This document shows, in pieces, positions 9,301 through 57,398 of a stretch of DNA of 64,000 nucleotides. Position 1 is the stretch's first letter. Each line of letters begins with the position of its first letter. The notes beneath the pieces were generated by a model. That model did no database searches, was not told where the DNA came from, and saw nothing but the letters and a program-made list of their open reading frames with translations. The stretch is from a virus (Duplodnaviria > Caudoviricetes): positions 36,987 to 100,986 of the IMG/VR virus record IMGVR_UViG_3300030376_005300, one strand, 5' to 3'. A program made the position numbers and the translations under genes.

Positions 9301-12300
9301 CGTTTCCACACGACATGCTCCGGCAAGAAATTACGAGCCGCACTGCGCTCGTTGTAGTAGTTGTACAGACCTTTGTAGGGCGTTGCGGCGATGTCCAAGT
9401 AGTCGTATTGGTCACTAATTCCTATACATTCAACACCGTATGTACCCCTGTCCTCGTGGAAAGCCGAGTTCTTCACAACAGACTCGTCCCAAAACAAATC
9501 ACCGGTTGGATAATTACAAGCGTTTGCTCGTACCATGTCACCGCTTTGGATGGTGCGATGAAGTTGCGCGTCAGTAGGGGCACTGCCGACAGCAGGGTAG
9601 TCACTGCTGGTCGTAGGTAATGAAAAACCAGTGTGAACTTGCGCTTCTACATGCGGACCAGCAGTAGCCGTACCGACATACCGGTCTTTATTGTGTACCT
9701 TCCCAGTATCCCAAGCCACTGTACCAGCGTGTTCAATGTTACCCGTCTGCCCAACATGCAACCAGTCTCCCATACCACTTACACCATTTTTGTCAGCCTT
9801 CGCAATCAACGGTAGTTCGCTTTCATGAGTGATGGCTACGAGGTGACGACTGGCAAGACCGTCTACACAGTAGTCTTCGTAGAACGAAACAACAGCACTC
9901 TCTCCTGTGAGTTTACTGGCGGGACTTGAGCCGCCAACGCAAGTCTCTGCGGCTCCGTAAGGGTTGAAACCTAAGAACGGATGCCACGCTCCTAAACCAG
10001 CAGGGTGTAAGTTGGCACCGATGTCATTGGTAGCCTCGTACGAGTTGAGATAAGAATATGCTTCACCATGCCAACCGACAGCGCCGACCGGCTTAGTTCT
10101 ATCAACTGCATCTTGGAATCCACCAAAGTGAACCTGAGTCATGTGGTCTCTTCCCGTTCCCGACGCCGCGTTATTGAAACGATGAGTGCCAGCCTTGGCC
10201 CAAACATACGCTTTGAAACTTGTATCAGGAGTGATTGCACTGCGCGTTTGAGGATTCACAATGTTGGTGTTAGAAGTGATGGCGTTCTTTGCGAGCGTAA
10301 ATGTGGTGTTTGGTGCCGATATACTCTGTGAAATGTAAGGTGCGAAGCCAGCGTTAGCACCGTCGCTGACTCTTAACCAGCCATAATCAGGGAGCGTTGT
10401 TGCTGTACTGGTGACTCTCAAAGAAGCAGGTGTCCCGCTGTTTTCGGCTGTGTACTGGTTTACCTCTAACTCTACCCAACCGTAGCGGTCTTGCTTGTGA
10501 GCGTTCTGCATGCTGGGCATAAAGGTACCACCTATTGCCTTCAATGGGTCTTTACCGGGGAAGGTATTGATAGCGCCGCTGAGGACTGCGCCCAGTTCTT
10601 CGGCGTTCTGACATCTTGTAGCATCTACGACGACAACATTATCATCCAAGATTTGGTTGTCGGGTGAGCCTCCGTAATAAGTGAGGTAAGCCTTAGCGAG
10701 AAGACCAGCAGGGCGGAAAGCACTTGTGTTGTGCTTCGCACCGCTACCAGTTGACAAGAACGCACTCGCCGCATGGTTCTTGGGGTTCTTCCGTACATGG
10801 TCGTCAAGGAAGTGACCGCCGGGATGGTACCCTCCGTCCATGTGCCAAACGACAGAAGACTTCCTTGTAGTCGCATGACTCCCACTCCCAACAGCGTTTC
10901 CGCTAATGTCGTCAAAGACATGACTGAACGGGTGATAGTTTTTCGGAAGGCCAGTTATGGCACCTGCTGTACCTTCGTAGAAAAAGGCCATGGATTTAGT
11001 TTGCGAGTATGTGCGAGAACTGGAAGCGTTGACATTTGGGAAACCCTTTGTCGGTTGCCAATTCATAACATAGTTGAAGCCTTGAACATTGTTCTTTTGG
11101 AAGAAAGTAGTCATAGGTAAATACGCTAACGCTCCGCCTCTGTTGAAACCACTGTGCTCTGTAGTGTCCCCGTTGGCCAATTGATTTGGCAAAAATGAAT
11201 CTTTGGCAGTGTTCCCTCCAAGGTAAATTGGTACAGCACTGTAACCGTTACCAGCAGTGACTATGTTTGCACCTTGCGGTTCGGTCGTTGCTGTATTATG
11301 CGGAAAGGCCTGCCCCGGTCCGAAAATCATGTAAGTAGTCGCATCGCCTGTACTACCGTCATGCCTGTAACGAGCATGGGCATGGGCGAAACGCAAGATG
11401 ACAGGGCTCGGGACATTAGCATGAACAGAATTACTACCATCGGTGTAATCCAAGCCTGTCACCTTGCTGTTAGCACCTTTGGTCATATCAAACGGTAGTA
11501 TGGCATCTTGATTGAAAAACGGAGGATGGTTTTGTCCTTTGTGCTGGTCAAGGTACACTGTTCCGGGGAACATGGCCATCATGGCATTGGTATCAAGCAG
11601 TGCGAATGACCCAGCGATTTCTCCTACATTTTGGAAACCAGCAGAGCCAGTGGGTCCATTGGCGTAAGGATGTGTGTAGAAATCAGAATAATCGTTCTGT
11701 GTACCGTCATTGATGTCCGTTACCACGCCGCTAAAACCGCCACCGAAATAGAGTGGGACATAATGGTCAGGACTGTCTCGTCCGCCTCGGAAATACAGGA
11801 ATGGGCTGGAGTTTTTACTACCGGCTATTCTTACACCATCTATTTGAGAAAAGTCGCGATAAGTAGAGTTCCGCTTCCAAAGTATGTCTCCGCCTGCTGG
11901 GTTAGGGAACGCTACAGGATTGGTGCTCTTACTTTCAATCGTGACTACTTCTTCGGGGTCGGCTACACCTGCCTTGCTCCTCACTCTTGCCCAAGCGTTA
12001 CTGCTGTGCCAAACAATAAACGGCTCGCCCCAACTGTTAGCAGTATCAGACGCAGGCTTACCAAGCAACGCCCACGATTCGTTTGTGGCTACACTGATGT
12101 CAGGGTCAGAGAAGGAGTGTACTTCAACACAAGGAGAGTCCACTCGTGGAATGATGTGGTCACCTGCAATGTCGGTGAAATTCTCCCCTCTCAGATTTTT
12201 CTGCCAGTCAATGATGTCTACTGTGTTATTCTGACTATCAACAAGTACAGGGGTCGCTGTATTTGCATTGGTCCCTCTGTATTTTGTACTAATATGCAAG

Positions 12301-15300: not shown

Positions 15301-18300
15301 CTGAATACCGTGCCACTTGCATTTCGCCACGCCACCCTGAACTTGTAATCGCTATCAGGGCTGTCTTTTGGAAAGAGACTGGCATCGTCCAGTGTGATAG
15401 ATGTGGCAGGACTACCAGTTACTGAGACAACCTTGGCTCTTGGTCGTTTGGATTTGATTTTCGGCAAGTGAGGGTTGTTCCTTGGACCTGCGCGCAGTTC
15501 AATTGCACTGACATACTGCTTTAGTCCGTAATCTGTGTTGCCGCCTTGTGTCATAACATTTGAACGGTCAAAGTAGAATGAACGGCGATTTTCGTAACCT
15601 GCACTGATAAGACTTGGGTTGTCAGCGATACCGCTGTAGTTCATGTCTTGGTAGCCGGATGTTGGAAGAATGAATGCGCCGACTTTGAGGTCTCGGAAGA
15701 AATTTTCACTTGTGATGAAATCATCACCGGCCGAGCCCGCAACTGTAAGGAAGTTGTTCGTGGTGTCTCGTGCGGAATAGATAATCCACTCTCCGCTGGC
15801 TAAAAATGCTCGCCGGTACCTTGCACTGCCACCAAGTCCTGCGACTGAAACAGGAGGCGCTGAGGGTATAGGGAATAGACTTGCATCTTCAACATAAATC
15901 TTATGACCGCTGGTAGTGTAAGGCTGAGTAACCTTTGTCCCGCTACGGTGAGTATCGTTTTGAATAGCATAAGAGAAAGGACCGAAAATCTCAGGGTCTT
16001 GTGGAGACACTGACGATACTCTTCTACCAACAGGACTTGGAGCCCAAGAATGAGCGGTATGAGTAGCGTCAATGTGTATTTTCATAGCGTTGTCCGGGCC
16101 AACCAAATCGTTGAAAAATTGGTCATGGAATAATGGGATTTCAACAAGAGCGCGTGTGCTGGCATATTGCGTACCTAACTGATAGTCGTGCTGTACCGTG
16201 TCCAGTGTTTGGAACAAGCGGTCGTTGATGGTCGTACCGTCGTTGCACATCGTTTCTTGACTGAACTTGTCGTCTACATGTAGAACTCTACCTGCCGTAA
16301 TGCCAGTGGCAGTAATCCAAGCCGCCAGTGAGTCTGCCTCGGTACCGTCTGCAAGTACAAACTTACCCGTACCCTCGTGACCAGTGCCGGATGCAAAAGT
16401 AAAGGTATCACCTGTTTTGCTGGTGTATTCAGCCTTAGCAAACTTGATGCTTTCACCTTCGTTGCTGACAACCTCAAGGTATACCGTACCGACCTTTGGA
16501 AAGCAGTATGTACCCCACGATTGCAAATCGGTTGCTCTATTGTTTAGCGGACTAACAACTACAGTGGTACTTGTCGTACTATCCACTCGTGTTTGGCAGT
16601 CGTGACGAGTATTCCAAGCCAAACGAGCAAGGGGACTCGGGTCATAAGTCTCTTTGGTGTTAATTGCACCTTGTCCGACGCCACCAAGCGTCATAGTGAC
16701 AACAGGTGCACCGGGCATGATTTCTTTGACAATATGACTGTCAGGTGCGGCGGAACCCTTGATGTAGACACTGGACGAAGCGAGGTCGCTGGATATACCA
16801 TGTGCCGTTAAGACAGAGTTCCCATCGGTACCGTCTGCAAACGACAGCACTCTACCTTTAGCGACAAGGCTCTCAATTGATATGAAATTGGCTCTGTCCG
16901 AACTGTCAGACATTTTGCTGAGAATGTTCAAGCGGTTTCGGTCGCTTGGCTGAACGACAAGAGAGGTTATACCACTCACAGAAGTATGCTCAATGATGTC
17001 AAAGTACTCGTTGACACAGGTACTTTGATTTGTCGTACCGAGCCCAAAGACCTGTGGCTGATTAAACAGTTCGTCATTGTCAACGACGGCGGCGGTAGTT
17101 CCTCCTCCCACTGTGACGCTGGTCGTCGTGACTGCTGTGATAGCACCGAGGTCCGTACCATCTGCTTTGTAGAGGCGGTCTCCTGCTTCAAAGAAAGTAG
17201 TGGCATCCGCTCCGTCCACTGTCATAGCACCAGTGGTACTGGCGGCATAGCCTGAACCATTGTTGACAAGTATTCCAGTTCTTGGCCTGTTACCGTTGAA
17301 GGCAAGTTGGGTTGTAGCACCCGCTAATTCTTCAACATCGGCCACCTCGCTCTTGTTACTCCTGACAAGTACTCTATGAAACACAGATTTGCGAGTGGAC
17401 AGTTCGCTGGTTGCAAGAGCGATGGCTTGTGGAGTCGTAGAGGTCGGGTCAGTAGAAGTAAGTGGTAAGTAGTTTTCAGGACACAGGTCAAGGTTCAGCA
17501 ACTTTTCTGCAACTAAGCCCTCTGCATTATCGCCTTCCAAATCACCATCGGATAAGCCGAGCATGCTCGGAGTTTCAAAGTCAATGACACCGCCGGGAGA
17601 AAAGACGGTGAGTGGGTTAATCGCCATAGAGTCGTGAATCAAATCAAGAATAGAGTAGGACCCTGTGAGAATTGTACTGACGCTGGGCAATGACTTTTCA
17701 ACCAATAGTTTAGGAGACAAGTCTACTTTCTGTACAATGGCTCCAGTCGTGGCGGCGGTTGCAAACGCTGATGCAACAGCGGCAGAAAAGGTAAGCGTCT
17801 TGGCACTGTAGTTGATGGTTGCGAACACTTGACTATTGGTCGTGGCAGAAGTGTTTCCAATGCGTATATCCATACCCAGTATCGTTTGCCCGTCATGACC
17901 GAACGACTTGATGCTTTGAAGTGTAAGCACTTTGTTACTACCACTGATATTTCCGGTCAAGCGACTTGTGGCACCGACTGAAAATTCAGTACCTTCGTAA
18001 TCAAGGGCGTTGTAATGAAGTTGTACAAACGGAGCATAGCCGTATGCTGAAAGTGCAGGTAGTGAAAGAGTGGCTATGCGACTTTCTGTGGAAGGAATAG
18101 CGTGACGAGTGTTGCTGGTCTCTTCATGAGAAGGTACTGATTTGAGAAGGAATGGCACAGGATTGAAGCCTTCTCCACCAATGGCCAATAACTCACGCTT
18201 GGAATCGGCAATGTCAGACATACCGTTCTCAACCAAAGAAGAGACTACACTGGATGATGTGACACTTTGCACTTTGATGGGTGAGTGTATATCATAACTG

Positions 18301-34624: not shown

Positions 34625-37600
34625 TTAAGTACGGAAGACAGCCTTGTCAGATGAGACCTCAAGAACACCCTCTTCCATAGGCACAGTCATGCGTTTTTCA
34701 GACTCTTCGTCGTCTTCTTTTGGCTCAATGGTGAAATCTTCTCCGGGCCGCTTGCGATTGTCGTAGTCAGGCATAGTTTTCTCATCGTTGAGATTGGTTG
34801 GACCCGATGGAGATTCAATCGGAGTAGCGTAATCTATCCCTAAGCCCATTGTACCAGTGCTTGATTGGCCAACGGCTCCTGCTCCACTCTTCAAAAATTT
34901 GTCAATGAGCATCAAGCCTTTGACCAAGACCTTCTTTTTCTGTTTCTCTTCCCACCAGTTCGTATCTTCTTCCTTGTGAGGTTCAATGAGCGGTTCGGCC
35001 TCACCTTCGGATTCGTGAATCTCTTCTTTCTCTGCTATCTCAAGTCCAGCCTTCAACAGCGCACCTGCTACTGGACTCCAATACGGTCGCTGACTTTCAG
35101 CAAGACGAATCAGATAGTCGTTATTGGCCAGTGGGGAATGCACCGTCCACATATTACCTCGCTGTGTACACTTGTAGAGAACATCGCCTTGAGGCATGGT
35201 AATACGAACACCCGACTTGGCTCTGCTGATTTCGCACAACCACTGGTCGCTTTCGGACTTAGCCAGCATACCAAGTGTTTCCCTACTAACCAACCCCTCG
35301 CCTTCGGCTTCTCCGATGATTTTGGAACCTGTTAGCGTGTACACATCATCACCACCGGTCGTTTCCACCTTGCCGACATTGGCAACATTAACTCTAACAT
35401 GGTCACCTTCGTTGAATTTCTCAGGACTGTTGAACGCCACACCGACATCCATGTACATCTCACCTTCGGATTCTACAGCCCTGTCACCAATCTCTTCGTC
35501 TTTTGTAATCGGTCCAGTGCCAAGTCGGTAGGTGTAGGGGTCAGAACCTCGGCGCTCCAACACTCGCAAGACAACATCGCTACCGGGTTTGAGCATGACC
35601 CACTTCGGATGGCGCAATTCGCCAACCATGTAAACTGATTTGGCATCCCTGAGCAAAAGCGACTCGTGTGTCTCCATCAAACTCTTTACCGTGACTTTGA
35701 GTCCTTCATCATCGGTTAGTCTTGTATCGCTGGCACTGGGAACATGAATGTTCTCAACACCCTCCAACCCACCTCGTACAATCTTGATACGGTCGTTGAG
35801 CGGTACATCGTGAACTGCTTTCTCAGCAAACTCAATCACATCAAAGATGTAGTAGCCTTCTTCGGTCTTGATGACATCGGCATGGAAGTCCTCGTCTGTG
35901 ACTTTCTTGAAGTTCTCTTTGTCTTCATCGCTGAGACTGAACGACTTGGACGACACTTCGTCATCCTCTTTCTTGACAAAGCCTCGCTCACCTTCGGGCA
36001 TGTGAGAAACAATCCAGTCGCCTGTGAATCCTCGCAGGTCTTCAAGGTCGTCCAGTTCAAAAATACGGTGCATGGGTTGGAGTATAGGTACTTTCTTGCC
36101 CAAGTCTTTGCGGATGATGTCAGGGTTGGTCAAGTCGGCCAATCCAATTTCAGCCTTGGTAGTGGAATGCTTGTCACCGTGACGAGTGAGGCCTCGTTCG
36201 TCCGGCTTGAACTGCGCGCCCATACGGTCCAGTCTGTTGAGCCCGTCACGATGAACTTGGTGGTCAGGGTGTCTCAGCATCTCCATCCATTCGGAAGGTG
36301 CAACTCTGTCCCAAAACTTACCGAGCGGTTGAATCAAACGCTGTGCGTGCCCTTCGGGTACAGGCGTGATACTGACATTCCCGTTTCTTGAGATGCGGTA
36401 CTTGAAGTTGGGGCGAAACTCATCGCCGAACTCGTGACGCAGACCTGTGGAATTGTACACGCTGTGAACAGAGTGAGCGTTGGGTCCGAACTGGTCAACG
36501 GGTACATCGGTCATTTCGTCAGAAGTCTCGGTGACGCTTTCAGGCATAGGTACACTGGGGTCGTTGGTCAGAATGCTGTCCAACTTCTGCATGACATTCC
36601 AATAGTCGTTTTGGTACCTCAATGTCTTCTTTCCGCCGAACTTCACATTTTTCGGAGTAGAGGGTTTGGTCTCGTGAACAATTTCACCCTGCTTACTTTC
36701 CTTGCGCTGACGACGAGGGTCACTGTTGAACGCCAAGTGGTGATGAAGGCCAAGTTGTGAGTTGCGTTCTTCGGCTCTGTGGCCGACGGTGTTGTAAATT
36801 CCGTTGACCAATCTCAAGAAGTCCATATTTCTACTTCTTGGGTCTTTCTTCAACGATTCATGCTCTTTCTCAATATCAAGGTCGGGGTGTAATTGTTGAA
36901 GGAACTGGCGCATGGTCATGATAGGCGCTGAATACGAGGGGTCTTGCTGATAATTTGGAAGGAAGGTGTTTTGGATGTAATCAAGGAAGGTGGCGTTGTG
37001 GTATTCGTTGTTGGGGTCAAGTCCCAACTGTTGCATCAGTGCCTCGTTGTCGCCCAAGGTCTCGGCACTCATCATCGTCTCGTGACCTTGAAACGCCTGC
37101 TTGACCTGCGAGCCAATGTCAAGTTGCCCACTCAATCCCTCTTTGGTGACTCGGTTATGACCTCGTGTGCGAATACCGTGCTGGTCGTGCGGTACAGTGT
37201 TGAGATAGTCGTTGGCCATCATGGCGAACATTCGCATGTTCGCTTCCACTGTTTCGTGGTCCAAGTTGGGATTGAAAATGTGGTTGAAGAGTTCAGGGTC
37301 GGACTGGAGTAGATTTTTGAGATGCACTCCTGCACTGGTCATGGCGTTGGTATCGGCCACCAACTTGTCTTGCAGAATGCCGTCGTGACCATCAACAGAA
37401 AACCTTTGACCGCGCTTTTCACTCGCCGCTTCCAACCGAGCCTCCAAGTCGTCCAATCGTTGGTTGTTTTCAACCATGCGTCTACGGATGTCTTCCATTC
37501 CGGCTTCGTCTTTGATTTCCCGATGAACCTCCATTGATTCTTGTAAAAGTGACATCTCTGCAATCGCGTTTTCATACTCTTCCGTCGCAGGTGACGGTGG

Positions 37601-40318
37601 CTGTCTTGATAAAATCGGGTCAACCAACCCTTGCGGACCCATGATTGTACGGTAACCAAAGTCCTGCATGGTAGGTATGTGGTGTCTTTGTCTATGTTCT
37701 TCTTTCAAACGCTCCAAAGTGCGCTCGTATTCCTTATCCAACATGTCGTGCTGTTCATCAGTGACGGCCTTACCTTTGTCCGAAGAATACCGTTGCTCAA
37801 GTGCTTCTATTTCTGCGTCCAAATCACCCATTGCTAACTCATCAGGATGTCGGCGGAGTGACATAAAGTCCTCTTCGTGGTTTCGCAAAGTTGGCTGAAT
37901 CCGACGGTCCTTGATGTGCAGAACATCCTGATGCGGATTCATCGGAGCATTGGCGGCACCGAGCATGGTACCGAGAAGTGCGTAACTGTGCGCTCCGTGC
38001 GACATCATTCTTTCGTCACTGAGCGAGCCGCCTACGGCAAAGAATGGCTGGGCTACGCTCAACACACCTCTGCCGAGCAACTTTTGGTGACTGGTATCAG
38101 CCGCTTCAGCATCACCTGTACGACGGCCTTGATGGTAGTCCGAAAGTACTCGGTTATTGTACGCAGAATCCACCGTCGCACCGTGCCGTGCGAACTGAGT
38201 GTTGTAGCCGCCCGTACCTGCGATACTGGACGACATGGAAATGTTGTGAGGATTGAGATTGGTGGCCGAATCTTCCATGTGGCCTCGCACATTTGTACGA
38301 ATGAGTTTTTTCCCTTGCCGCATCTCAAACATTTGATTCTCTTTCTGACCAAACGGTGCAATAAACGACATCATCCCGTAATCTGTAACTTCCCCCAGTG
38401 GACTGTACTCATGCCGACCCTCAATGCCTGCCTTGGTTCGTGAGAACAAAAGGCTGTGTTCTCTGACGCCCTCGGTTTCAGGCTCGTACTCTACCTGTGC
38501 TTGTTCTTCTTCGGGCAGATAACCTTCGGCAAATCCACTTAAAAAATTGTTTTCGTTTGACTGTTGTGCTATTTCTTTGTACGACAGCGTGTGATGGTGA
38601 ATTTTGTCAAACAATTCGTTCGGGTGTTTATGAAGGCCGCCCTTGCCCTTGAACGGCAGTTGCCAATAAGTAGAGAGCGTTTCATGACCCTGCTCAGGGT
38701 TCATGTAATCGTACGCTTCATTGTCCATGGCAAAACCGTAGTGCATCGGAGCATGGTTTCTCGCCATTCTACCAACGCTGACTACATGCTTCGCATCAAT
38801 GGTCCTTTTTTCAAAAATCTTGTCAATCTCTTCTTGTGTGAACTCCCCACCGTCCCACAACTCGCCGTAGGTGGGATGCTCACCGGCAGGGTACAGTTGG
38901 TGATTTTCATCTACGCCGAGAAGCATTCGCATGGTTTGGTAGCCGGGGTAGTATTCCTCCTTTCTACCCGATTTGTCCGTGCCTTGAAGTTTCTTGTAGC
39001 CCACAACTTGCAGACTTTCTCTTCCGAACTCGTCTTTGACTTTCTGCATAACAGGTACTTCTGCGTTGCTCATGGGCTCGTAAGGGCCGAGCCCTTCAAC
39101 GATGTATCGGTCCGCCTCCATCTTGTTGTGATGAGCGACGGCACGGTCGTACGCATTCGGTTTACCCGGCGTTTGTGTTTCTCTCATCGCTTCATAGTTT
39201 TGAGACGGGTTGACTTCACTGGCCGAACTCGGCAGTGCTTTGGGACGAATCATCAGACCTTCACCGGGCCGTCCGGGGTCTCTTATCCAATGGTTGTAGA
39301 GTCCCGAAAATCGCTGATGAAAGTTTCTGATGAACCGTGGCATCCAGTTGGGGTTACCGTTGTGTGTGTTGGTGCGGAAGGGTTCATCGGGATTTGCCCC
39401 GTTCTTTTTCATATGGTCGTAAGCGGCGTTGCGTTGTTCGGGCGTGAGCCATTCCATACCGAAGAAGTAATCCATGAAACCAAGGTTATCCTTCCACTCC
39501 GCCTTTTTCTCGTTGATGTGACGCTTCCTCAACTCGTGCGCTACTTGGTCTTCATCCATACCTTGTTCTTCTAACGAAGCAGTCAATCTGTCTATGGACT
39601 GCTGATTGCGCTTCGTCCACTCACGATAATCATGTTCGTAAAATGCGTGATTAGTACCGTGTTCAGTATCAAGTTGGCCGTAATGAAACTTGTTGTGCAA
39701 AAAGCCGTGGTCTTCGTTATCCCTCACCCACTGCTCCCATCTACCTTCCCTATGATGGGCTTTCTGACTTTCTGACTCTGCATACGGGTCGTCAGGATGT
39801 GCATAATAATCACCGACTATGTTGTGATACTCCCCGTGAAGTGGGTTCATGTCGGAGCCAAGGTAGTTGTGCGTGCGGTACGGGTCGTTTTTGTCACCGT
39901 CTACCATCTGCCACGGTCGTCCAGCGAGTCCTTGTCCGGGGTCGGGCGGAACAATACGACTCTTGTCGTAACTGGGATTGTCGGCGAGGTTCATTCCTGC
40001 ACCGTGCCCCATGTAATACGACATCTGACTTTGTTGCATACCACCGGAGGACTCCATACCCTCACCCTCAGTGTTAAGGTCGTATGAAGACGAAGGACCA
40101 GTCACCTGTTGCTCGTCCGCCTTTTTGATGACGGAGTTGAACATTTTCAACAGGGCTTCGTCTTCGTTACTGAGGATGTAGCCTCTGCGTTCTGCACTGA
40201 TAGCAGAGAAGTAGAAGTCAGCACCAGCGTCAAACTTACCAATGCCGTCAATCAACGACTTGTAGAAGACTTGACGGTTCCTATCAAGGGTGTCCAGTGG
40301 GCCTTCTCGCATTCGCAT
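34625..40318 (-). CDS. Large (~1900 aa) head-module protein with a C-terminal degenerate ATP-dependent DNA ligase-like domain
   Basis: Ligase-like motif order (WIVSHMPEGER, YYIFDVI, PLNDRI, ESLLLRD..SVY..G...KWVMLKP, OB-like region); motif-I Lys absent; start uncertain (40312-40357). Confidence 0.65.
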   Translation of the reverse strand: MRMREGPLDTLDRNRQVFYKSLIDGIGKFDAGADFYFSAISAERRGYILSNEDEALLKMFNSVIKKADEQQVTGPSSSYDLNTEGEGMESSGGMQQSQMSYYMGHGAGMNLADNPSYDKSRIVPPDPGQGLAGRPWQMVDGDKNDPYRTHNYLGSDMNPLHGEYHNIVGDYYAHPDDPYAESESQKAHHREGRWEQWVRDNEDHGFLHNKFHYGQLDTEHGTNHAFYEHDYREWTKRNQQSIDRLTASLEEQGMDEDQVAHELRKRHINEKKAEWKDNLGFMDYFFGMEWLTPEQRNAAYDHMKKNGANPDEPFRTNTHNGNPNWMPRFIRNFHQRFSGLYNHWIRDPGRPGEGLMIRPKALPSSASEVNPSQNYEAMRETQTPGKPNAYDRAVAHHNKMEADRYIVEGLGPYEPMSNAEVPVMQKVKDEFGRESLQVVGYKKLQGTDKSGRKEEYYPGYQTMRMLLGVDENHQLYPAGEHPTYGELWDGGEFTQEEIDKIFEKRTIDAKHVVSVGRMARNHAPMHYGFAMDNEAYDYMNPEQGHETLSTYWQLPFKGKGGLHKHPNELFDKIHHHTLSYKEIAQQSNENNFLSGFAEGYLPEEEQAQVEYEPETEGVREHSLLFSRTKAGIEGRHEYSPLGEVTDYGMMSFIAPFGQKENQMFEMRQGKKLIRTNVRGHMEDSATNLNPHNISMSSSIAGTGGYNTQFARHGATVDSAYNNRVLSDYHQGRRTGDAEAADTSHQKLLGRGVLSVAQPFFAVGGSLSDERMMSHGAHSYALLGTMLGAANAPMNPHQDVLHIKDRRIQPTLRNHEEDFMSLRRHPDELAMGDLDAEIEALEQRYSSDKGKAVTDEQHDMLDKEYERTLERLKEEHRQRHHIPTMQDFGYRTIMGPQGLVDPILSRQPPSPATEEYENAIAEMSLLQESMEVHREIKDEAGMEDIRRRMVENNQRLDDLEARLEAASEKRGQRFSVDGHDGILQDKLVADTNAMTSAGVHLKNLLQSDPELFNHIFNPNLDHETVEANMRMFAMMANDYLNTVPHDQHGIRTRGHNRVTKEGLSGQLDIGSQVKQAFQGHETMMSAETLGDNEALMQQLGLDPNNEYHNATFLDYIQNTFLPNYQQDPSYSAPIMTMRQFLQQLHPDLDIEKEHESLKKDPRSRNMDFLRLVNGIYNTVGHRAEERNSQLGLHHHLAFNSDPRRQRKESKQGEIVHETKPSTPKNVKFGGKKTLRYQNDYWNVMQKLDSILTNDPSVPMPESVTETSDEMTDVPVDQFGPNAHSVHSVYNSTGLRHEFGDEFRPNFKYRISRNGNVSITPVPEGHAQRLIQPLGKFWDRVAPSEWMEMLRHPDHQVHRDGLNRLDRMGAQFKPDERGLTRHGDKHSTTKAEIGLADLTNPDIIRKDLGKKVPILQPMHRIFELDDLEDLRGFTGDWIVSHMPEGERGFVKKEDDEVSSKSFSLSDEDKENFKKVTDEDFHADVIKTEEGYYIFDVIEFAEKAVHDVPLNDRIKIVRGGLEGVENIHVPSASDTRLTDDEGLKVTVKSLMETHESLLLRDAKSVYMVGELRHPKWVMLKPGSDVVLRVLERRGSDPYTYRLGTGPITKDEEIGDRAVESEGEMYMDVGVAFNSPEKFNEGDHVRVNVANVGKVETTGGDDVYTLTGSKIIGEAEGEGLVSRETLGMLAKSESDQWLCEISRAKSGVRITMPQGDVLYKCTQRGNMWTVHSPLANNDYLIRLAESQRPYWSPVAGALLKAGLEIAEKEEIHESEGEAEPLIEPHKEEDTNWWEEKQKKKVLVKGLMLIDKFLKSGAGAVGQSSTGTMGLGIDYATPIESPSGPTNLNDEKTMPDYDNRKRPGEDFTIEPKEDDEESEKRMTVPMEEGVLEVSSDKAVFRT

Positions 40319-40328
40319 CACCAGCCGT

Positions 40329-40730
40329 TCAAAGAATACGGCTGGAGATTCGGTCAACGGACTTCTTTAAATCACTCATTTTTGGCCCGTCGCCGCCTGT
40401 GAAGTTTTCAAGAGCGCCTGTCGTACTGAAAGCCGTCGGGTAGTAAGGGGAGGTCCGCGTCAATACATCGCTGTTTTCGGAAATGGCACCTTTGTTAGCG
40501 ACATCCTCAACCTTAGGGACGGTGTTGTTGGTGTTGTAGAAAGCATTGGGAATACCAGCAGGTTGAATTTCAAAGCGAGCATGGCCCACATCAGAGCCTT
40601 CTTCTTGACCGGAGTAGTCAGGCATGCTACCTTCTTTCTTAGCAATGCGGGCTTCAAGAGCCTTGGCGGCTTTGAGAAGTTCGTATGCTTTGTCGTTCGC
40701 TTGTACAAATCTCGGTTTCATCGTATTCAC
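40329..40730 (-). CDS. Hypothetical head-module protein, 133 aa (AYELLKA motif)
   Basis: GTGA-coupled to the upstream gene; variant of the AWxLLK leader near the N-terminus. Confidence 0.65.
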   Translation of the reverse strand: MNTMKPRFVQANDKAYELLKAAKALEARIAKKEGSMPDYSGQEEGSDVGHARFEIQPAGIPNAFYNTNNTVPKVEDVANKGAISENSDVLTRTSPYYPTAFSTTGALENFTGGDGPKMSDLKKSVDRISSRIL

Positions 40731-50454: not shown

Positions 50455-51156
50455 TCACAATATGTCAAGGATGTCGTCATCCACTGTTCCGTCTGCGTTG
50501 GCGAGTAGGCTGGCCTTGACTCGCTTCCAAACATCGGGACTCTCTTTGCCTAATTCAACTTTGAGGACATTGATGGTATTATTGGCGACATTGGTCGTTG
50601 GTTCGGCCCACTTCTCTTGGTAAGCACTGAGGTCTTTCAGCGTCTCTCTAACTTCCTTGTGAAGTCGTACCATGTCGCTGATAACGCCATCATCGTGGAT
50701 ATTGGTTTCTAACATGTACTGAGCCAGTTTACCATTGAGTCCTTGGACATTGTTTCGCAGGATGTCAACTTCTTCGCCGACTTTGATAGCGACCACTGCC
50801 GCCGAACTCTTCTTGACAAGCGGTTGAAAGTGATGCTTCATGTGTCGGTATACCGAATCTTCACTGCATTCTAACTCATCAGCGATACTCTCACTGGTAC
50901 GGTCGCCTTCAAAGTAAGCAACTTCCAATGCACTGCGATGGTCACTGGTGCAAACTGCACAGGAATGGTTCGCAGTGCTGTGGTATTCACCAACATGGTT
51001 TTTCATATGACGCTCCGCAGTATTGGTTCGCCAACCCATATCCTTGTCCATCACTTGAGGGTTAGCGATACCGTCAATGATACTCTGTTCCAAGGCATCT
51101 CGGTCAGGATGTTGACAAAAAGGACAACTTCGCTTTGTCTGACGAACCCCTCCCAT
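50455..51156 (-). CDS. Tandem zinc-finger/HTH protein with a coiled coil (terminase small subunit candidate), 233 aa
   Basis: Two CxxC...RHMKxH repeats followed by a helical oligomerisation-like region; heads the transcription unit leading to terL. Confidence 0.5.
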   Translation of the reverse strand: MGGVRQTKRSCPFCQHPDRDALEQSIIDGIANPQVMDKDMGWRTNTAERHMKNHVGEYHSTANHSCAVCTSDHRSALEVAYFEGDRTSESIADELECSEDSVYRHMKHHFQPLVKKSSAAVVAIKVGEEVDILRNNVQGLNGKLAQYMLETNIHDDGVISDMVRLHKEVRETLKDLSAYQEKWAEPTTNVANNTINVLKVELGKESPDVWKRVKASLLANADGTVDDDILDIL

Positions 51157-51216
51157 ACCATATCGCAGGAGGCTGACATGAATAACCTTTTTGAACAAAG
51201 TGCCCTACGAACACTG

Positions 51217-51543
51217 ATGAAACTTCCTCGTATCAAGCCCAAAATCATGGGTGTTCCTGTGTCTATAGAGACTGTGAGAAACTTGTCAAGAGCAGGAAGA
51301 GACATTGCTATGATGAGATATGTTCCTGATGATGTTAAGCAGATTCGGCTTGACATTTGTAAAGGATGCCCCAGTTGGAAAAACTACCGCTGTACCGAAT
51401 GCGGCTGTCAAATGAGGGTCAAGGTCAGCCTAACATCAAGCGAGTGCCCCCTCAAGAAATGGGGCAGGCATGTCCCGTCGTTAAATCTCGGAGATGCGGG
51501 AATAGATACCAGTGAGCATGAAAAACGCTCCAAACAGTCCTAA
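51217..51543 (+). CDS. Small Cys-rich protein (R..IC..C...C..CGC...K......CP..KW), 108 aa; only credible plus-strand gene
   Basis: Six-Cys pattern typical of a widespread small viral family (DUF6171-like from memory); divergent from 51156. Confidence 0.65.
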   Translation: MKLPRIKPKIMGVPVSIETVRNLSRAGRDIAMMRYVPDDVKQIRLDICKGCPSWKNYRCTECGCQMRVKVSLTSSECPLKKWGRHVPSLNLGDAGIDTSEHEKRSKQS

Positions 51544-51723
51544 CACAAGATAAGCCATGCTGTTGCTGTCCATTTTACTACTGGAAGTTAGCAACAACAT
51601 AGACAGCGTGACAATAATAGTCAAGAGTTGAACCATTATCATGTCAACGATGACACTCTTTCTTGGAGCAAAAATCTCCATCGCTGTGTTGGATAAGCCC
51701 GTAAATCCGTAATCTCTCATCAT
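51481..51723 (-). CDS. Small two-TM membrane protein, 80 aa
   Basis: Two hydrophobic helices; SD GGTGA; last gene of the GTPase operon. Confidence 0.65.
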   Translation of the reverse strand: MMRDYGFTGLSNTAMEIFAPRKSVIVDMIMVQLLTIIVTLSMLLLTSSSKMDSNSMAYLVLGLFGAFFMLTGIYSRISEI

Positions 51724-51727
51724 GTTA

Positions 51728-52366
51728 TCACCGTGTCCCCATCATTCTGCCCATAAAACTACCAGCGGCAGAGCCCGCTTTGTCCATGAATCCGTCATTT
51801 GCCAAAGCCGCGTTCAAAGCCCCTCCCATCATGGACTGCTGTGCAAATGCCGCAATCTGCTGTTGTTGCATTTCTGCCTGTTGAATACTTTGTTGACTGG
51901 CCATTTGCAGTGAACTAAATTGATTTTTGACATTCTCGGCACTCATGGTTTGAAGATTGTCAGGAAGTGAAGTGACATCCATTTTCATTTTACCTTCCTT
52001 TTCGTCAATGATGAACTCAGCGTTTTTGAGAACTTCCAACACTGAAAAACTCACGAGGTCGTTGAACATCTGCAAGAAAGTTGCCATCTGTGCTCCAACG
52101 ACAAAACGGTCAATGGGTGCAAGTGTACGCATCATGGCCAGTTGAATCTCCATTTCGCTGGGAGGTGCCATTGGTTGTTGCATCATACCTTGTTGCATAC
52201 CTGCTCCTCCCATCATGCCGCCCATAAACGCGTTGTTTTGGGCTTGTTGCATCATGCCATTTTGCTGTGCAAATGGGTTCATTTGAGAGTTCATAGGAGG
52301 AGCGTTAGATTGCGCTCCAAGGTTAAGTGCACCGTTTTGTTGTTGTCCATTGTTGCCAAATAACAT
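51728..52366 (-). CDS. Q/M/G-rich protein, 212 aa
   Basis: SD GAGGTGA; low-complexity N-terminus, helical core. Confidence 0.7.
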   Translation of the reverse strand: MLFGNNGQQQNGALNLGAQSNAPPMNSQMNPFAQQNGMMQQAQNNAFMGGMMGGAGMQQGMMQQPMAPPSEMEIQLAMMRTLAPIDRFVVGAQMATFLQMFNDLVSFSVLEVLKNAEFIIDEKEGKMKMDVTSLPDNLQTMSAENVKNQFSSLQMASQQSIQQAEMQQQQIAAFAQQSMMGGALNAALANDGFMDKAGSAAGSFMGRMMGTR

Positions 52367-52375
52367 TTTCTCACC

Positions 52376-53386
52376 TCACTGTGTAAATAGCCCTTGCTCT
52401 GTTTGTGGGAGGGCACCTTGATTCATAACACCATTGGTCACCTCTTGGGGTAAATTTTGAGCCACGCTGGGTGGCGGGTGTTGCATAATACCGAGATTAC
52501 CGATAGCATCGGAAAGAGTCGGCGTCATGTTGGTCATTTCCTGTTGAAACAATCTTAGGTCAAAGACAATCATAGTCACATCGTTGATGCCGGTTTCCGG
52601 GTTTTTGTAGTGAAGGAGGTTAATACCGTTGTAAGCCTTGGAGTCTTTTTCCAACTGCATAAAGAACGGCTCATACTTCTTGAGGAGTTCAGGAGTATTG
52701 TCTTTCTTTCGGACTATGGATATTGGCACTGCTACTGTAGAAACCCCTTTCTTAACCATTTCTCGCATACCTGTTTTGGTCTTGTTGTGGTCTTTGTCAG
52801 CCTCGGATTCCCACTTGCACAACAAATGATACAAGTGAAGATGTTCAGGGCAGTAGGTACCCTTCATTTTGCGACCGTTCGTAACTTGTTCCCGTGCCAC
52901 AAACGGCTCCGGCGTACCTGTTACTGGATTTTGCCAATACATTTCCCACAAACTCTTACCGCTTTCCTCATCGGTAATTTTAGCGTACAAGTTGTCGTAC
53001 TTGATGAGTTCTTCGCAGTCGCACCCGTCAATGACGCATAGGTTGCTTTGACGATTGTAGCGATATTTCCGTCCCCAAACCCAGCGGAGAGGGTTAAACA
53101 AACTTCGCTTTGTAGGAGTTAGCAACTTACGAGCCTGCTTGATGTCCTGTTTGCGAGCCTTTCTTGGGTCAGGATGACGACTTGGGTAGAAGTTCACTTT
53201 AGGTACCTCAATGTTCTGCTTGGCTATTTCTTGCATACCTTGCTGTGCGGCTTGCATTTCCATCAACTGTTCATGACTTGCGTTCCCTTGCTGGCCCAAG
53301 GCCACCAAATGAGACTGACTCATGTTTGCCAAATTGGCGTCACTCTGCGGTACTCCATATCCTCGTAATCTCATCATTTTCTTCAC
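52376..53386 (-). CDS. Hypothetical protein with Cys/His cluster, 336 aa
   Basis: CVIDGCDC...YCPEH; directly downstream of the GTPase. Confidence 0.7.
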   Translation of the reverse strand: MKKMMRLRGYGVPQSDANLANMSQSHLVALGQQGNASHEQLMEMQAAQQGMQEIAKQNIEVPKVNFYPSRHPDPRKARKQDIKQARKLLTPTKRSLFNPLRWVWGRKYRYNRQSNLCVIDGCDCEELIKYDNLYAKITDEESGKSLWEMYWQNPVTGTPEPFVAREQVTNGRKMKGTYCPEHLHLYHLLCKWESEADKDHNKTKTGMREMVKKGVSTVAVPISIVRKKDNTPELLKKYEPFFMQLEKDSKAYNGINLLHYKNPETGINDVTMIVFDLRLFQQEMTNMTPTLSDAIGNLGIMQHPPPSVAQNLPQEVTNGVMNQGALPQTEQGLFTQ

Positions 53387-53387
53387 C

Positions 53388-54104
53388 TTAACTTAACAAA
53401 TCCAACATTGTATTTTCTACATTCCAACCAATTTTCGTAGCCATCATTCCCCTCTTCGTAGGAACACCCGCTTTTTGGAGGCGTACGAGGTCTTCTCGGA
53501 ACGGGTCAAACATTCTGTGTTCACCAAGGCGTTGCTGTTGCCACAGTATGTTTGCTTGCTCATCCCACCATTCATCCGCTTTGTTTGCCACCAACATAAC
53601 CATTTTCGGAACATATCTCTTACCTTTCCAGCGACTTTTCAAATTACGATAGCGATACTGCCTATGAACGATTGCATCTACAAGAAATTTAAATCCTCCT
53701 ACGGCTTGCACAGCAGGGTCTCCTCCTTGTGTACAGCGATGGTCAAACAAAAATATGATGGCCTCTACTTGTCTCGCTACCATGTCGTCCGTCCAAAGAT
53801 TCCAAAAGCGTTCTTCTCCAGCAATGTCAGAGGAATATACCACACGCTTGTCGCCTTTCCAAGAAACACGCTTCCGAGTCGCACCGGGAAGTAAAAAGCG
53901 ATTGAAACCGGGTACTTTGAAGTGCTTGGTACGCTCGTCAAGTGGAATGTCCTCCATCTCTCCGGGCGTTGTCATGTAGCGGTCAAGCGTAGTTTTACCA
54001 ACCATTGTCGGACCGTATACGCCTACTCGCCTTGGTTTCCAGTAGTGGTACAACTCTTTGGCGAACACCACGCCGCCAACAAGTGCGCTACCTCCCAGTG
54101 ACAT
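53388..54104 (-). CDS. Small Ras/Arf-superfamily-like GTPase with an N-terminal hydrophobic helix, 238 aa
   Basis: G1 GPTMVGKTT, candidate G2 Thr (ERT), G3 DIAGEERF, G4 NKAD; TGATG coupling at 54102-54106. Confidence 0.8.
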   Translation of the reverse strand: MSLGGSALVGGVVFAKELYHYWKPRRVGVYGPTMVGKTTLDRYMTTPGEMEDIPLDERTKHFKVPGFNRFLLPGATRKRVSWKGDKRVVYSSDIAGEERFWNLWTDDMVARQVEAIIFLFDHRCTQGGDPAVQAVGGFKFLVDAIVHRQYRYRNLKSRWKGKRYVPKMVMLVANKADEWWDEQANILWQQQRLGEHRMFDPFREDLVRLQKAGVPTKRGMMATKIGWNVENTMLDLLS

Positions 54105-54361
54105 CAGTCTCTCCCCGAAAAAATAGCGTTTGACCAACTCTGCAACTTACCTTTGAGCCAATCACCTGAAGATTCCCACAGATTCCAATCAGTGTAAAAT
54201 TCAAAAGCACTGACAACAAATGCAGTTGTCGTTGAAAATATCACCACTTTCAACCAACCCCAGCCGCGTTCGTAAGCAACATCCACCGTGTTGGCGATGT
54301 GCATGCTACGAAGGGTTTCCTCCACAGCGTCGTCGCTGGGGGTCTTGAAAATGCGACCCAT
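54104..54361 (-). CDS. Small single-TM membrane protein, 85 aa
   Basis: Hydrophobic segment WLKVVIFSTTTAFVVSAF; translationally coupled to the GTPase. Confidence 0.65.
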   Translation of the reverse strand: MGRIFKTPSDDAVEETLRSMHIANTVDVAYERGWGWLKVVIFSTTTAFVVSAFEFYTDWNLWESSGDWLKGKLQSWSNAIFSGRD

Positions 54362-54367
54362 GTGGCA

Positions 54368-54958
54368 TCACTTGTCCTTTTTCTTGAATGTCCCGTCAGC
54401 GTTTCGCTGAGGTTCCTTGCCATCGTCAAAGTCAAATCCGAGAGAAAGAGGTGCAGAGGTCTTAGCAGGTACGAAGTCAACAGTACCGGTACCAGCACCC
54501 TTCATGCGTTGCTCAATCCAAGGTGGTGTTTTACCGGGGTTATGTTCCATCCAGTTAAGTTCGGACTCCAATTGTGCCTCTTGCATGCGGATTTCCATGT
54601 CTTGTCGGCGTCGGTCAAATGACATTTCCATGCTACGGTAGCGTGTACGGCGTTGCTTTTCCTGAGAAGCAATCCTTGCCCGTTCGTCCATACCTTGCTG
54701 GAAGAACATTTTGAACAAGTAGTAGGCTACACCTTGTACTGCAAATGCGGCCATAGCGTAAGTGATTCCGTTGACTGTCGGGTCATCCAATTTAAGCCAG
54801 TAACCTGCATCAAAAACAGCAATGGCTATCCCTATTGACACGGCTTGGGTGAGAATCAAACCCATCAATCTTATCTCTGCTTGGTCAGCGTCTCTCATTG
54901 GCTCTCTACCGCTCTGCACAACAATCCCTCTCGGTGTTCGCACCACTGTTGTACTCAT
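54368..54958 (-). CDS. Two-TM membrane protein with a coiled coil, up to 196 aa
   Basis: Two hydrophobic helices followed by a charged heptad region; start uncertain. Confidence 0.7.
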   Translation of the reverse strand: MSTTVVRTPRGIVVQSGREPMRDADQAEIRLMGLILTQAVSIGIAIAVFDAGYWLKLDDPTVNGITYAMAAFAVQGVAYYLFKMFFQQGMDERARIASQEKQRRTRYRSMEMSFDRRRQDMEIRMQEAQLESELNWMEHNPGKTPPWIEQRMKGAGTGTVDFVPAKTSAPLSLGFDFDDGKEPQRNADGTFKKKDK

Positions 54959-54970
54959 AAAGGTATCACA

Positions 54971-55017
54971 AAAATATGAAAGGAGGGCCGAAGAGGGAGA
55001 GAGTGCCCCTCCGACCC
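54971..55017 (-). terminator. Stem-loop plus U-rich tract (putative terminator/structured RNA)
   Basis: GGGUCGGAGGGG-9nt-CCUCUUCGGCCC (12 bp including 3 G-U pairs) followed by UCCUUUCAUAUUUUU. Confidence 0.5.
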
Positions 55018-55036
55018 GGTCACTGCGAAGCAGTCA

Positions 55037-56236
55037 TCACTCTTCTTTCTTTTCAGAGTCAAGTTTTTCCCGCTTGCCGTCCTTTGAGGGACCGGGGCCT
55101 GCTTTAGAGCCGATAACAATGACCATACCGTGGGCTGGTTTCTTGCTTTTTTTGTCATCTGCCTTTTTCTTGTCATCGCACTTACAGTTTTTACCACATT
55201 TAGGGCACTCTGCTTTATTCATACTACAGTGCATTTTACCGATGCAGTCTTCTTTATCGCACTCGGAGCACTTTGCTTTGTACATCATTTCTTCTACTTG
55301 CTTTCTGATTTCTTCACCTGTGTTATTCACAAACATATTCTCACCTTTCGTTGTTCCAAATCCACCGAACTCTTGCTGTGCTTCAAAGCCAGTGGCCCTT
55401 GGGTCGCTACGATAAGCGTCCGGGTTCCATATCTGACGGTCAGCAACAGTGTTGCCCTGTACATTGGAAATATCATTGATGCCGAGTCCTCCTGACCCGA
55501 ATCCTTGGGTTTGGCCTTGCATACCAAAGCCGCTATCTTGGTCGTTGTCTTGTCCAAGTAGTGATTGTGCGCCGTAAGCACCCATGAGCGTAGCGGCAAC
55601 GGGGCCTAACTGCTCTTCTGCTTGTCCGAGTGCTTGGAAACCACGACCAAGTGTACGGTTGAATCTGCTGTCGCCAACTCTCCGTAGACCTGTGGCACCT
55701 GCATCAAAGCCTCGCCCCGCTGATTGTCGCGCCGCACCAAAAGGCGTCATGGTGGAATCAATGTAGCCTTCGGGCGTCACCTTACTACGCAAACCGGGGT
55801 ACAGCATGTCCTGCTGACGAGCAACGGCCTCTGCGGTATCGCTACCAACTCGGCTGGCCGCTCTCGCTCTGTTCGCTTGCCGACCTGCTCTGACTGCCTG
55901 TGCTCCTCTCCCTGCCCCACTGACATAAGCCAAAGGATTCAAACCCTGTAATGCACCAGTAGCGAATCCAAGTGCCCGTTGACCGCCTGTAGCATCTTCA
56001 ATTTCTTTTTCTGCAAGTAGACCACCTGTAAAAGGGTCTTGGAAAGTAGCACCGCCATGAAAGCCGGGGTCAAGTTTTCCTGTCTCGGGATTGAAAACCC
56101 TACCCCCTGCGCCTGTGAATCCACCCAATAAACCGAAAGCGGCGGGAACGGCCAAAGGTAAAATCTTCTCAACCTTGTCAGGGTCACCTTTCACGACCGA
56201 CCAAGCGTGGTCAATCGGTAAAGAAGACTCCGACAT
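55037..56236 (-). CDS. Leader-bearing (PIDHAWSVVK) glycine-rich protein with a Cys/Lys-rich C-terminus, 399 aa
   Basis: Start reassigned to ATG 56236; glycine-zipper hydrophobic segments; CSEC..C..C..CPKC..CKC tail. Confidence 0.7.
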   Translation of the reverse strand: MSESSLPIDHAWSVVKGDPDKVEKILPLAVPAAFGLLGGFTGAGGRVFNPETGKLDPGFHGGATFQDPFTGGLLAEKEIEDATGGQRALGFATGALQGLNPLAYVSGAGRGAQAVRAGRQANRARAASRVGSDTAEAVARQQDMLYPGLRSKVTPEGYIDSTMTPFGAARQSAGRGFDAGATGLRRVGDSRFNRTLGRGFQALGQAEEQLGPVAATLMGAYGAQSLLGQDNDQDSGFGMQGQTQGFGSGGLGINDISNVQGNTVADRQIWNPDAYRSDPRATGFEAQQEFGGFGTTKGENMFVNNTGEEIRKQVEEMMYKAKCSECDKEDCIGKMHCSMNKAECPKCGKNCKCDDKKKADDKKSKKPAHGMVIVIGSKAGPGPSKDGKREKLDSEKKEE

Positions 56237-56990: not shown

Positions 56991-57398
56991 TCAGCCTCTT
57001 TTCTCTTGATTCTGCTGAGATGTTTTGTCATCATCTATAGGACCGCCTGCGGCCCAAGTGTAGCATGTTCTGTCCTTGTGACACTTGAAATCATGCATCC
57101 AACAATAACCTAAGTCACCTTCTAACGGCATACATTCTTTCATACGAGGACTAATGTCAAAAGCAATACAGTTACTACAATTTGACTCTTTGGCCACTTC
57201 GGGTGTAGTGTTCCAATGCTTTGCCGCATCAACCCAGTAACCTTCATCTGTTAAGTTCAAAGGTCCGTACTTTATATGCTCGGACTTAATAGCAGTGTTT
57301 CTATTCTTCGTATTCAACTTCAAGTCTCTTGTAGCCATAGGGCAAGTTGACCTCTGCTTGATAATGGCCCAAGCCTGTTCCATTAGTAGCATATTCAT
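56991..57398 (-). CDS. Leader-bearing (MEQAWAIIK) Cys-rich protein, ~133 aa
   Basis: CPMAT...YGPLN...CSNC...GYC...FKC...RTC..W metal-binding pattern. Confidence 0.7.
   Translation of the reverse strand: MNMLLMEQAWAIIKQRSTCPMATRDLKLNTKNRNTAIKSEHIKYGPLNLTDEGYWVDAAKHWNTTPEVAKESNCSNCIAFDISPRMKECMPLEGDLGYCWMHDFKCHKDRTCYTWAAGGPIDDDKTSQQNQEKRG

Follow-up and report, generated by a model that had tools for sequence, protein, structure and literature searches.

How tailed archaeal viruses leave cells bounded by a membrane and an S-layer is an open question, and the locus examined here raises a narrower one: what does such a virus do with a small GTPase encoded among membrane proteins? The locus is a block of six genes (g1 to g6, positions 54958 down to 51481, minus strand) in the IMG/VR virus record IMGVR_UViG_3300030376_005300 (Duplodnaviria; Caudoviricetes), which by its gene content is a magrovirus of marine archaea. 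The source record is 100,986 bp long, with a CheckV completeness of 98%, and the stretch that we analyzed, called the window below, is its final 64 kb (64,000 nucleotides [nt]; positions 36,987 to 100,986 of the record). A first-pass annotation, made by a model from the sequence alone, had described six co-oriented genes here and had proposed that a GTPase, g3, controls membrane remodelling, egress or lysis timing, or superinfection exclusion. The six open reading frames (ORFs) indeed lie on the minus strand at those positions, and we consider that they most probably form a membrane-associated Arf-like GTPase switch operon, to which we assign a probability of about 85%.

The g3 protein contains the motifs G1 GPTMVGKTT, G3 DIAG, and G4 NKAD, as had been annotated, as well as a G5-like MAT(K/R) and a probable G2 Thr/Ser just before strand beta2. 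Among 91 homologues, GxxxxGKTT, DxxG, NKAD, and MAT(K/R) were invariant or nearly so and occurred in the right order. When g3 was used as a single-sequence query, nothing meaningful was found in Pfam, PHROGs, or NCBIfam, phmmer against PDB returned only noise, and tblastn against the GenBank phages gave no match, in a collection that seemingly contains no magrovirus (ON649702 is absent from it). A phmmer search of 1.84 billion cluster representatives retrieved only 75 g3 relatives and no canonical GTPase; therefore, the g3 family is narrow and divergent. A profile was then derived from 21 sequences of the family, with members down to ~25% identity (alignment A1), and was searched against PDB. 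Its best match, leading all non-RecA matches, was the Asgard Arf 8oun (E = 5e-7), followed by Arl8A/B, Arl10B/C, and Arl5 (E = 1e-4 to 1e-3) and, lower down, by Rab33, Arf1, Arl3, KRas, and SR-beta (5ck4, E = 0.023). The AlphaFold2 (AF2) model of g3 had a mean predicted local distance difference test score (pLDDT) of 88.8 and a predicted template modelling score of 0.83, and a Foldseek search with this model gave at least 500 PDB matches, all of them small GTPases. The top rows from VIA-align were ARF6, Arl8b, and Arl10B (Z 17.0-17.4), with the Asgard GerdArfR1 at Z 16.8 and Rab5-type proteins at ~15; scores ranged over Z 14-17.4 across ~160 residues, and the Arf-type rows stood ~2 Z units above the Rabs. 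Judged by profile and predicted structure, g3 is a true Ras-superfamily (TRAFAC class) small GTPase fold whose nearest relatives are of the Arf/Arl/Sar type, which bears out the GTPase identity given in the first-pass annotation.

The more specific assignment to the Arf type held only in part: Arf proteins are the closest by profile and structure, but g3 is not a strict Arf. The best profile and structural matches of the family are with Arf/Arl/Sar1 proteins (ARF6, 2a5f; Arl8b, 8jc5; GerdArfR1, 8oum), and it shares with them a GKTT P-loop, a conserved Trp seven residues past the catalytic position, an xAT G5, and a helix before the G domain. Published Arf criteria comprise an 'LD' in G1 (GLDxxGK[ST]), with DxGG as an Arf-type feature (PMC11914678). 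DxGG was present in 81 of the 91 homologues, and DxAG in the window protein (DIAG) and 7 others, whereas the 'LD' is absent from the family, position 2 being P, A, or T and position 3 S, T, A, or P. The Pfam Arf model (PF00025) did not match the window g3 and matched 6 of the 21 family members at E = 0.0048 or worse, below the gathering score, with comparable matches to Roc and MMR_HSR1. Some g3 homologues carry the label "GTPase SAR1 family protein" from the JGI pipeline. The family further differs from Arf/Arl/Sar1 in that the catalytic Gln is not conserved, in its occurrence in a virus whose archaeal host is not an Asgard, and in three family-specific inserts: ~30 residues in switch I, containing a conserved TTPGE; a basic helix of ~20 residues between beta4 and beta5; and ~17 residues between G4 and G5. 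Taken together, the motifs and the modelled fold indicate that g3 defines a new family of Arf/Sar-like small GTPases and is not a strict member of the Arf family.

The N-terminal hydrophobic helix that had been annotated in g3 was likewise upheld in one respect and not in another. A ~15-residue Gly/Ala/Val-rich hydrophobic stretch is present, followed by the aromatic and basic sequence LYHYWKPRR, and AF2 predicts a helix at residues 12-33 of the 249-amino-acid (aa) ORF (pLDDT 51-80), but the segment is too short for a standard transmembrane (TM) helix; its hydrophobic moment is 0.28-0.50. The basic insert (~148-167, YRYRNLKSRWKGKRY) resembles a conserved basic stretch of the g4 protein (~95-112, NPLRWVWGRKYRY), and this shared stretch could be a membrane-binding or interaction motif.

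One alternative that arises from these matches is that g3 is an SR-beta-like factor, which would target or insert viral membrane or secreted proteins or anchor packaging and assembly to the membrane. SR-beta belongs to the Arf-like GTPases and is anchored by a hydrophobic N-terminal helix; apart from the weak profile match to 5ck4, the Pfam model SRPRB matched one of the 21 family members, and the block adjoins the packaging genes. On the other hand, the SR-beta matches are weaker than those to Arf/Arl, no SRX or longin-like partner was detected, and few viral membrane proteins outside the block would need such a factor. We regard the chance of this explanation as very slight.

The five partners of g3 are, as far as database searches reach, proteins without a known family. 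TM helices were called by hydropathy in three of them, two in g1, one in g2, and two in g6, and these numbers agree with those given by the first-pass annotation. The g1 protein (54368-54958; 196 aa) consists of a hairpin of two hydrophobic helices (~31-52 and ~64-86), one of which passed the hydropathy window scan while the second was seen in alignment A4, and of a basic, cytoplasmic coiled coil, with a conserved NPGK motif. As a SLATT two-TM effector it gave only sub-threshold matches (Pfam, E = 0.063; NCBIfam, E = 0.0084) in 1 of 14 members, and this candidate was rejected. The g2 protein (54104-54361; 85 aa) has one TM helix in its center and a C-terminal tail rich in Trp, and the last gene of the operon, g6 (51481-51723; 80 aa), encodes a two-TM hairpin of holin-like size and topology. 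The g4 protein (52376-53377; ~333 aa) is a soluble protein whose N-terminal region is basic and conserved; a cluster of Cys and His residues (C117, C122, C179, H182, H184, and H187; alignment A2) is a probable Zn site, and these residues are lost in L084, one of the distant relatives described below. Its AF2 model was poor (pLDDT 49.7), and no family was found for it in PDB or Pfam, nor any usable match in the Atlas, apart from a weak CxC6 cysteine-cluster match in 11 of 17 members. The g5 protein (51728-52366; 212 aa), the other soluble one, begins with a low-complexity region rich in Q, N, G, and M; a conserved PPSE motif, a folded central part, a Q-rich helix, and, at the C-terminus, a helix rich in Gly, Ala, and Met follow (alignment A3). 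PDB, Pfam, and the Atlas provided no lead on it. Coat-like folds (beta-propeller, alpha-solenoid, longin, or roadblock) were not detected in g4 or g5 by Pfam and PDB profile searches. Furthermore, no holin family or hydrolase was found with Pfam, PHROGs, or NCBIfam, and the window contains no recognisable endolysin or alternative lysis gene.

Co-conservation had been set beforehand as one of the tests that could overturn the proposal, and it did not do so. A scan of IMG/VR identified 191 contigs that encode a g3 relative, and the locus counts in this report refer to the best 80 of these, in which g3 is 61-94% identical. The order g1-g2-g3-g4-g5-g6-g7-g8 was preserved, with g4 to g8 present in all 80 loci, g2 in 79, and g1 in 78; where g1 or g2 is missing, the contig ends near the block. 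The most conserved gene within the block was g3. Conservation of the block's coding sequences across 80 independent viral contigs is far beyond chance. The same cassette was present in a second lineage, in which g3 is ~40% and TerL 46-49% identical, between an HMG-CoA lyase region and g7/TerL; its ORFs encode a 145-aa two-TM coiled-coil protein, a 74-aa one-TM protein, the GTPase, a g4 of the Cys/His type, a g5 that is rich in Q, N, and M and ends in a tail rich in Gly and Ala, and an 81-aa two-TM protein. L084, whose g3 is 37% identical, retains g1 (E = 2e-13), a 70-aa one-TM gene, g3, g4 (E = 1e-22), a g5-like gene, and a two-TM protein. Across the distant lineages, the positional equivalents of g2 are 70-74 aa long, and those of g6 are two-TM proteins of 81-106 aa in the same place; the gene sizes of the block are also kept in contig P0005. 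In the most distant relative, L089 (g3 26% identical), two multi-TM genes precede the GTPase and head genes follow it. Because the gene order is kept in 78-80 of 80 contigs, in a second lineage, and in L084, we regard g1 to g6 as a module, not as chance neighbors, and it is a core module of magroviruses.

Some relatives carry additional genes within the block. At L084:6241-6999, a 252-aa acidic protein with a run of ~30 Asp is inserted between the one-TM gene and the GTPase; this contig also carries large glycosyltransferases and a resolvase. At L036:6721-7774, three genes are inserted between g3 and g4. Two of them carry an ..AW.LLK leader (MGPFDLAWSLLK and FEYAWALLK), and the third encodes a 74-aa protein that looks AbrB/SpoVT-like by eye. 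The leader-bearing inserts suggest co-expression of the operon with proteins required during capsid assembly.

The degree of conservation bears on the possibility, raised in the first-pass annotation, that GTPase-controlled membrane proteins exclude superinfecting viruses or modify the envelope, by blocking entry or by changing a receptor. Small viral inner-membrane proteins often serve exclusion, and the block encodes three membrane proteins. However, genes for exclusion or defence are usually variable accessories, while this cassette remains syntenic in viruses whose TerL is only 46-49% identical, and such a role is hard to reconcile with a gene whose conservation is about that of TerL. No PADLOC defence model matched any of the six proteins, the SLATT hint in g1 is confined to a single member, and the block belongs to the late, structural arm of the genome. 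Thus, we judge superinfection exclusion to be highly unlikely.

The block is also delimited at both ends. Between the upstream 421-aa gene and g1 lies a hairpin with a 12-bp stem (54985-55017, minus strand), followed by a T-rich tract, so the stem-loop by which the block had been said to be set off is real, and it is accompanied by a promoter-like region. RNAfold gave -28.7 kcal/mol for 54961-55040 (80 nt), and GC-rich hairpins of similar sequence were found upstream of g1 in close relatives; the hairpin is likely a terminator or boundary of the upstream unit. A T/A-rich, TATA-like box (54971-54982, minus strand) is located ~24 nt before the g1 ATG, and no Shine-Dalgarno motif precedes g1. More distant relatives have an evident TTTATAT/GTTATATT box ~26 nt before this ATG, and because such a box at this distance fits an archaeal promoter with a leaderless transcript, we regard the TATA-like box as a candidate archaeal promoter and the operon mRNA as a candidate leaderless or short-leader transcript. 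Within the block, the intergenic gaps are 1-9 nt, and (A)GGTGA-type Shine-Dalgarno motifs precede g2, g4, g5, and g6. The start sites of two genes were revised from the first-pass annotation. For g3 (53388-54104, minus strand), the ORF is open to 54137 (249 aa), but the true start is almost certainly ATG 54104 (238 aa), since gene callers and most homologues begin there; this ATG overlaps the g2 stop codon as TGATG (1-nt overlap) and follows a GGGGAG motif. For g4, the start is probably ATG 53377, behind an AGGTGA Shine-Dalgarno motif, with GTG 53386 (336 aa) as an alternative.

At the other end, a Cys-rich 121-aa gene with a GGAGG ribosome-binding site (51178-51543, plus strand), which the first-pass annotation had missed, runs toward g6 (convergent) and away from g7 (divergent). 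It was recovered by tblastn in 51 of the 80 loci at 33-86% identity, and its product gave a sub-threshold DUF6171 match (E = 4.9e-4). The plus strand is otherwise nearly empty, almost all genes of the window being on the minus strand. This gene marks the 3' limit of the g1-g6 unit and is outside the module. Because the hairpin and the TATA-like box stand before g1 and the convergent gene stands after g6, g1 to g6 is, by these predicted signals, one discrete transcription unit with its own predicted promoter. It lies directly upstream of the g7/TerL packaging genes. The g7 gene (50455-51198, minus strand; probable start ATG 51159) encodes an N-terminal CPFC zinc motif and has weak helix-turn-helix matches (GerE and sigma-70 region 4); all 80 loci and the second lineage contain it, invariably right after the cassette and upstream of TerL, and it is a candidate small-terminase or regulator.

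The neighborhood offers a further explanation, namely that the TM proteins and their partners travel in the virion and open a channel across the host envelope at entry, as the internal virion proteins of T7 and P22 do. The block is situated among morphogenesis and cargo genes, and one g1 homologue gave a weak T7_gp14 match (1 of 14 members, E = 0.0075). Nevertheless, the [AS]W..hhK leader ("AW leader") that marks putative packaged proteins was found in none of the six cassette proteins, as the first-pass annotation had stated, while it is present in the flanking g0, g8, and 56991-57398; moreover, the operon is bounded on both sides and has a predicted promoter of its own. To our knowledge, no ejection system contains a small GTPase. 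The likelihood of this explanation is slighter still than that of an SR-beta-like factor.

The identity of the virus determines which cell the operon would act on. The window encodes a portal, a T4-type TerL, an HK97/SU10-type major capsid protein, a prohead protease, and a tail tube protein, and the genome carries a replication and chaperone set consisting of PolB, an RFC-like protein, SNF2, and Cpn60_TCP1, a thermosome-type chaperonin. A gene set that includes a thermosome subunit and SNF2 is that of magrovirus group A, which infects Marine Group II (Poseidoniales) archaea (Philosof et al., PMC5434244; ICTV profile). The present genome has the features of this group (order Magrovirales), namely a tailed-virus head module, its own PolB replisome, a thermosome-type chaperonin, an SNF2 helicase, and a genome of ~90-100 kb. 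The closest cellular relatives of the viral chaperonin were in Poseidoniales metagenome-assembled genomes (MAGs), at ~40% identity, and the stretch was detected in marine metagenomes from 16 studies, no RNA data set being listed among the sequencing runs that contain it. Its gene content indicates that the virus is a group-A magrovirus of marine Poseidoniales and not a halovirus. The first-pass annotation had suggested a test by expression in Haloferax; because of the magrovirus gene set, the kinship of the chaperonin, and the marine occurrence, a halovirus origin is ruled out and Haloferax would be a surrogate host at most.

Several other features of these genomes were observed. The structural arm contains very long ORFs, at 3384-19853 (minus strand; 5,489 aa) and 34625-40357 (minus strand; 1,910 aa), the latter with a weak match to an ATP-dependent DNA ligase domain (E = 5.8e-4). 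L090 (NZQM01000180.1), a 9.6-kb contig labelled as a Parvibaculum MAG, encodes a chaperonin 83% identical to the viral one and is probably a mis-binned magrovirus fragment in a bacterial MAG. Several Poseidoniales-like chaperonin contigs also appear under bacterial MAG names (Chloroflexota, Salipiger, Yoonia, and Rhodobiaceae).

In the host lineage itself, no counterpart of the viral system was found. The g3-family profile detected no relative in 301 Poseidoniales genomes, a single match being limited to the P-loop (E = 0.007). In 101 Poseidoniales genomes, the Pfam Arf model gave 0 matches, with the control positive in 12 of 14 genomes, and ArvB/OapB also gave 0 matches. The virus appears, as far as these genomes indicate, to supply what its host seemingly lacks.

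The closest known archaeal system is ArvABC (OapABC). ArvA, which is Arf-like and has an amphipathic helix at its N-terminus, is a GTPase required for the formation of extracellular vesicles in Haloferax and sufficient to increase it; its operon partners are a SepF-like protein and a Zn-ribbon protein proposed as a GTPase-activating protein (GAP), and overexpression leads to hypervesiculation (PMC10927574). The viral operon resembles this system in having an Arf-like GTPase with an N-terminal helix that binds the membrane (putatively in the virus), downstream operon partners of which one binds Zn (predicted in the virus), and an archaeal cytoplasmic membrane as its target (proposed for the virus). 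In contrast, neither ArvB (PF09846) nor ArvC (PF09845) was found by a six-frame search of the 101-kb viral genome at E <= 0.1, with a positive control in Haloferax volcanii; the viral g4 and g5 are unrelated orphans, three integral membrane proteins are added, and the GTPase (238 aa) has three large inserts. These comparisons indicate that the viral operon is not a member of the ArvABC system, although the two may function alike.

This comparison also suggests a different use of the operon, in which the GTPase, with g4 and g5 as a minimal coat and the TM proteins as receptors or cargo, buds vesicles or builds membrane compartments, for example as an internal or peripheral platform for assembly, as receptor-bearing decoys, or to spread viral material. 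ArvA drives outward budding in Euryarchaeota, with hypervesiculation upon overexpression (PMC10927574). The parts list loosely parallels Sar1 and COPII, with a receptor, a GTPase, a Zn adaptor, and a low-complexity outer part, although this is a resemblance only; and since the searched host genomes had no ArvB or Arf-model matches, any such activity would have to be virus-borne. However, tailed viruses need no membrane for their particles, the coat-like folds listed above were missing from g4 and g5, and an accessory benefit such as decoys is ill-matched to conservation at the level of a core gene. We consider a vesicle or compartment builder doubtful.

A switch operon of this kind could act as follows. 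In its GTP state, g3 would free its N-terminal helix to bind the host membrane from the cytoplasmic side, with help from the inserted basic helix. There g3 would encounter g2 and g6, both small TM proteins, and the coiled coil that g1 exposes to the cytoplasm. It would then recruit the Zn-type g4 and the low-complexity g5, with its amphipathic tail, as regulators, adaptors, or coat-like partners, and the assembly would deform or permeabilise the single membrane of a host that has only an S-layer. The most likely purpose would be the timed release of virions, with the GTP/GDP switch as timer or trigger. This mechanism is put forward because of the analogy with Sar1, Arf, and ArvA, and as a whole we give it somewhat less than an even chance.

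A role in egress or lysis, taken by itself, is a more tentative proposal, which we hold as possible rather than probable. We ranked it first among the functions considered because the conservation is like that of essential genes, because the block stands at the head of the packaging arm and is apparently co-expressed with cargo genes in a relative, and also because the block encodes holin-sized TM proteins while no other lysis function was recognised in the window. In lambda-type phages, the lysis genes are located just before the terminase genes, and we infer from this lambda-like position and the leader-bearing inserts of L036 that the operon is expressed late. Phage holin cassettes thus share with the viral operon small proteins with one or two TM helices (g2 and g6) and a place just before the terminase genes. 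They differ in that the viral block has neither endolysin nor spanin, the host has no murein, classical cassettes contain no GTPase, and no holin family was matched.

Several points weigh against this interpretation. The catalytic-Gln position of g3, the residue after DxxG, varies among the 91 homologues (Q in 36, E in 35, D in 12, and H in 6), and hydrolysis may be slow, depend on a partner, or matter little. With its low hydrophobic moment, the N-terminal segment appears closer to a short hydrophobic anchor than to a switchable amphipathic helix of the classical type. The roles of g4 and g5 as GAP, guanine-nucleotide exchange factor, adaptor, or coat are guesses, and no S-layer- or envelope-attacking enzyme was recognised in the block. 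Moreover, the evidence may fit other essential late membrane tasks as well as egress. With respect to the variable catalytic residue, the MglA-MglB and Rag/Ragulator systems are instructive: there too, a small Ras-like GTPase is encoded in an operon with a regulator, and the variable residue of g3 would suggest partner-assisted hydrolysis. In the viral neighbors of g3, however, no Roadblock/LC7 or longin domain was detected, and the available matches place g3 nearer to Arf than to MglA.

A stronger version of the egress interpretation would be a self-contained, GTP-switched machine for membrane budding or scission, in which the Sar1-like GTPase, the receptors g1, g2, and g6, the Zn adaptor g4, and the low-complexity g5 open the cell for release. 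We consider this unlikely, and just as unlikely that it would represent an independent viral counterpart of COPII or ArvA vesiculation in a lineage without a system of its own.

We found no published description of this module, and the magrovirus literature that we examined does not mention a GTPase. By its sequence and modelled fold, the GTPase is of a known kind, the small Arf-like membrane switches, but it belongs to a new, virus-specific family in a new setting and with orphan partners. Virus-encoded members of the Ras superfamily are known from giant viruses, and the mimivirus Rab (5xc5) aligned with g3 at Z 14.8. In BFVD, the viral structural relatives among the best matches were only Rab, Ras, and Ran proteins of giant eukaryotic viruses. 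Those are recent captures of eukaryotic genes by Nucleocytoviricota, whereas the g3 family is deep-branching, Arf-like, and virus-specific, and has a dedicated operon. As far as the best BFVD matches show, viral small GTPases of the Ras and Arf types have so far been gene captures by giant eukaryotic viruses, and a deep Arf-like family that is conserved approximately like a terminase, together with five orphan partners, is unusual.

In the surface ocean, magroviruses rank among the most abundant viruses of archaea, and the mechanism by which they are released bears on carbon turnover in Poseidoniales. The operon offers a compact and tractable model of GTPase-driven membrane remodelling in archaea, and, beside ArvA and the Asgard Arfs, it contributes a further case to the debate on how Arf/Sar-type membrane switches evolved before eukaryotes. 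If the budding or scission machine, unlikely as we consider it, were real, archaeal tailed viruses would have their first defined mechanism of egress, and prokaryotic viruses their first functional system based on a small GTPase.

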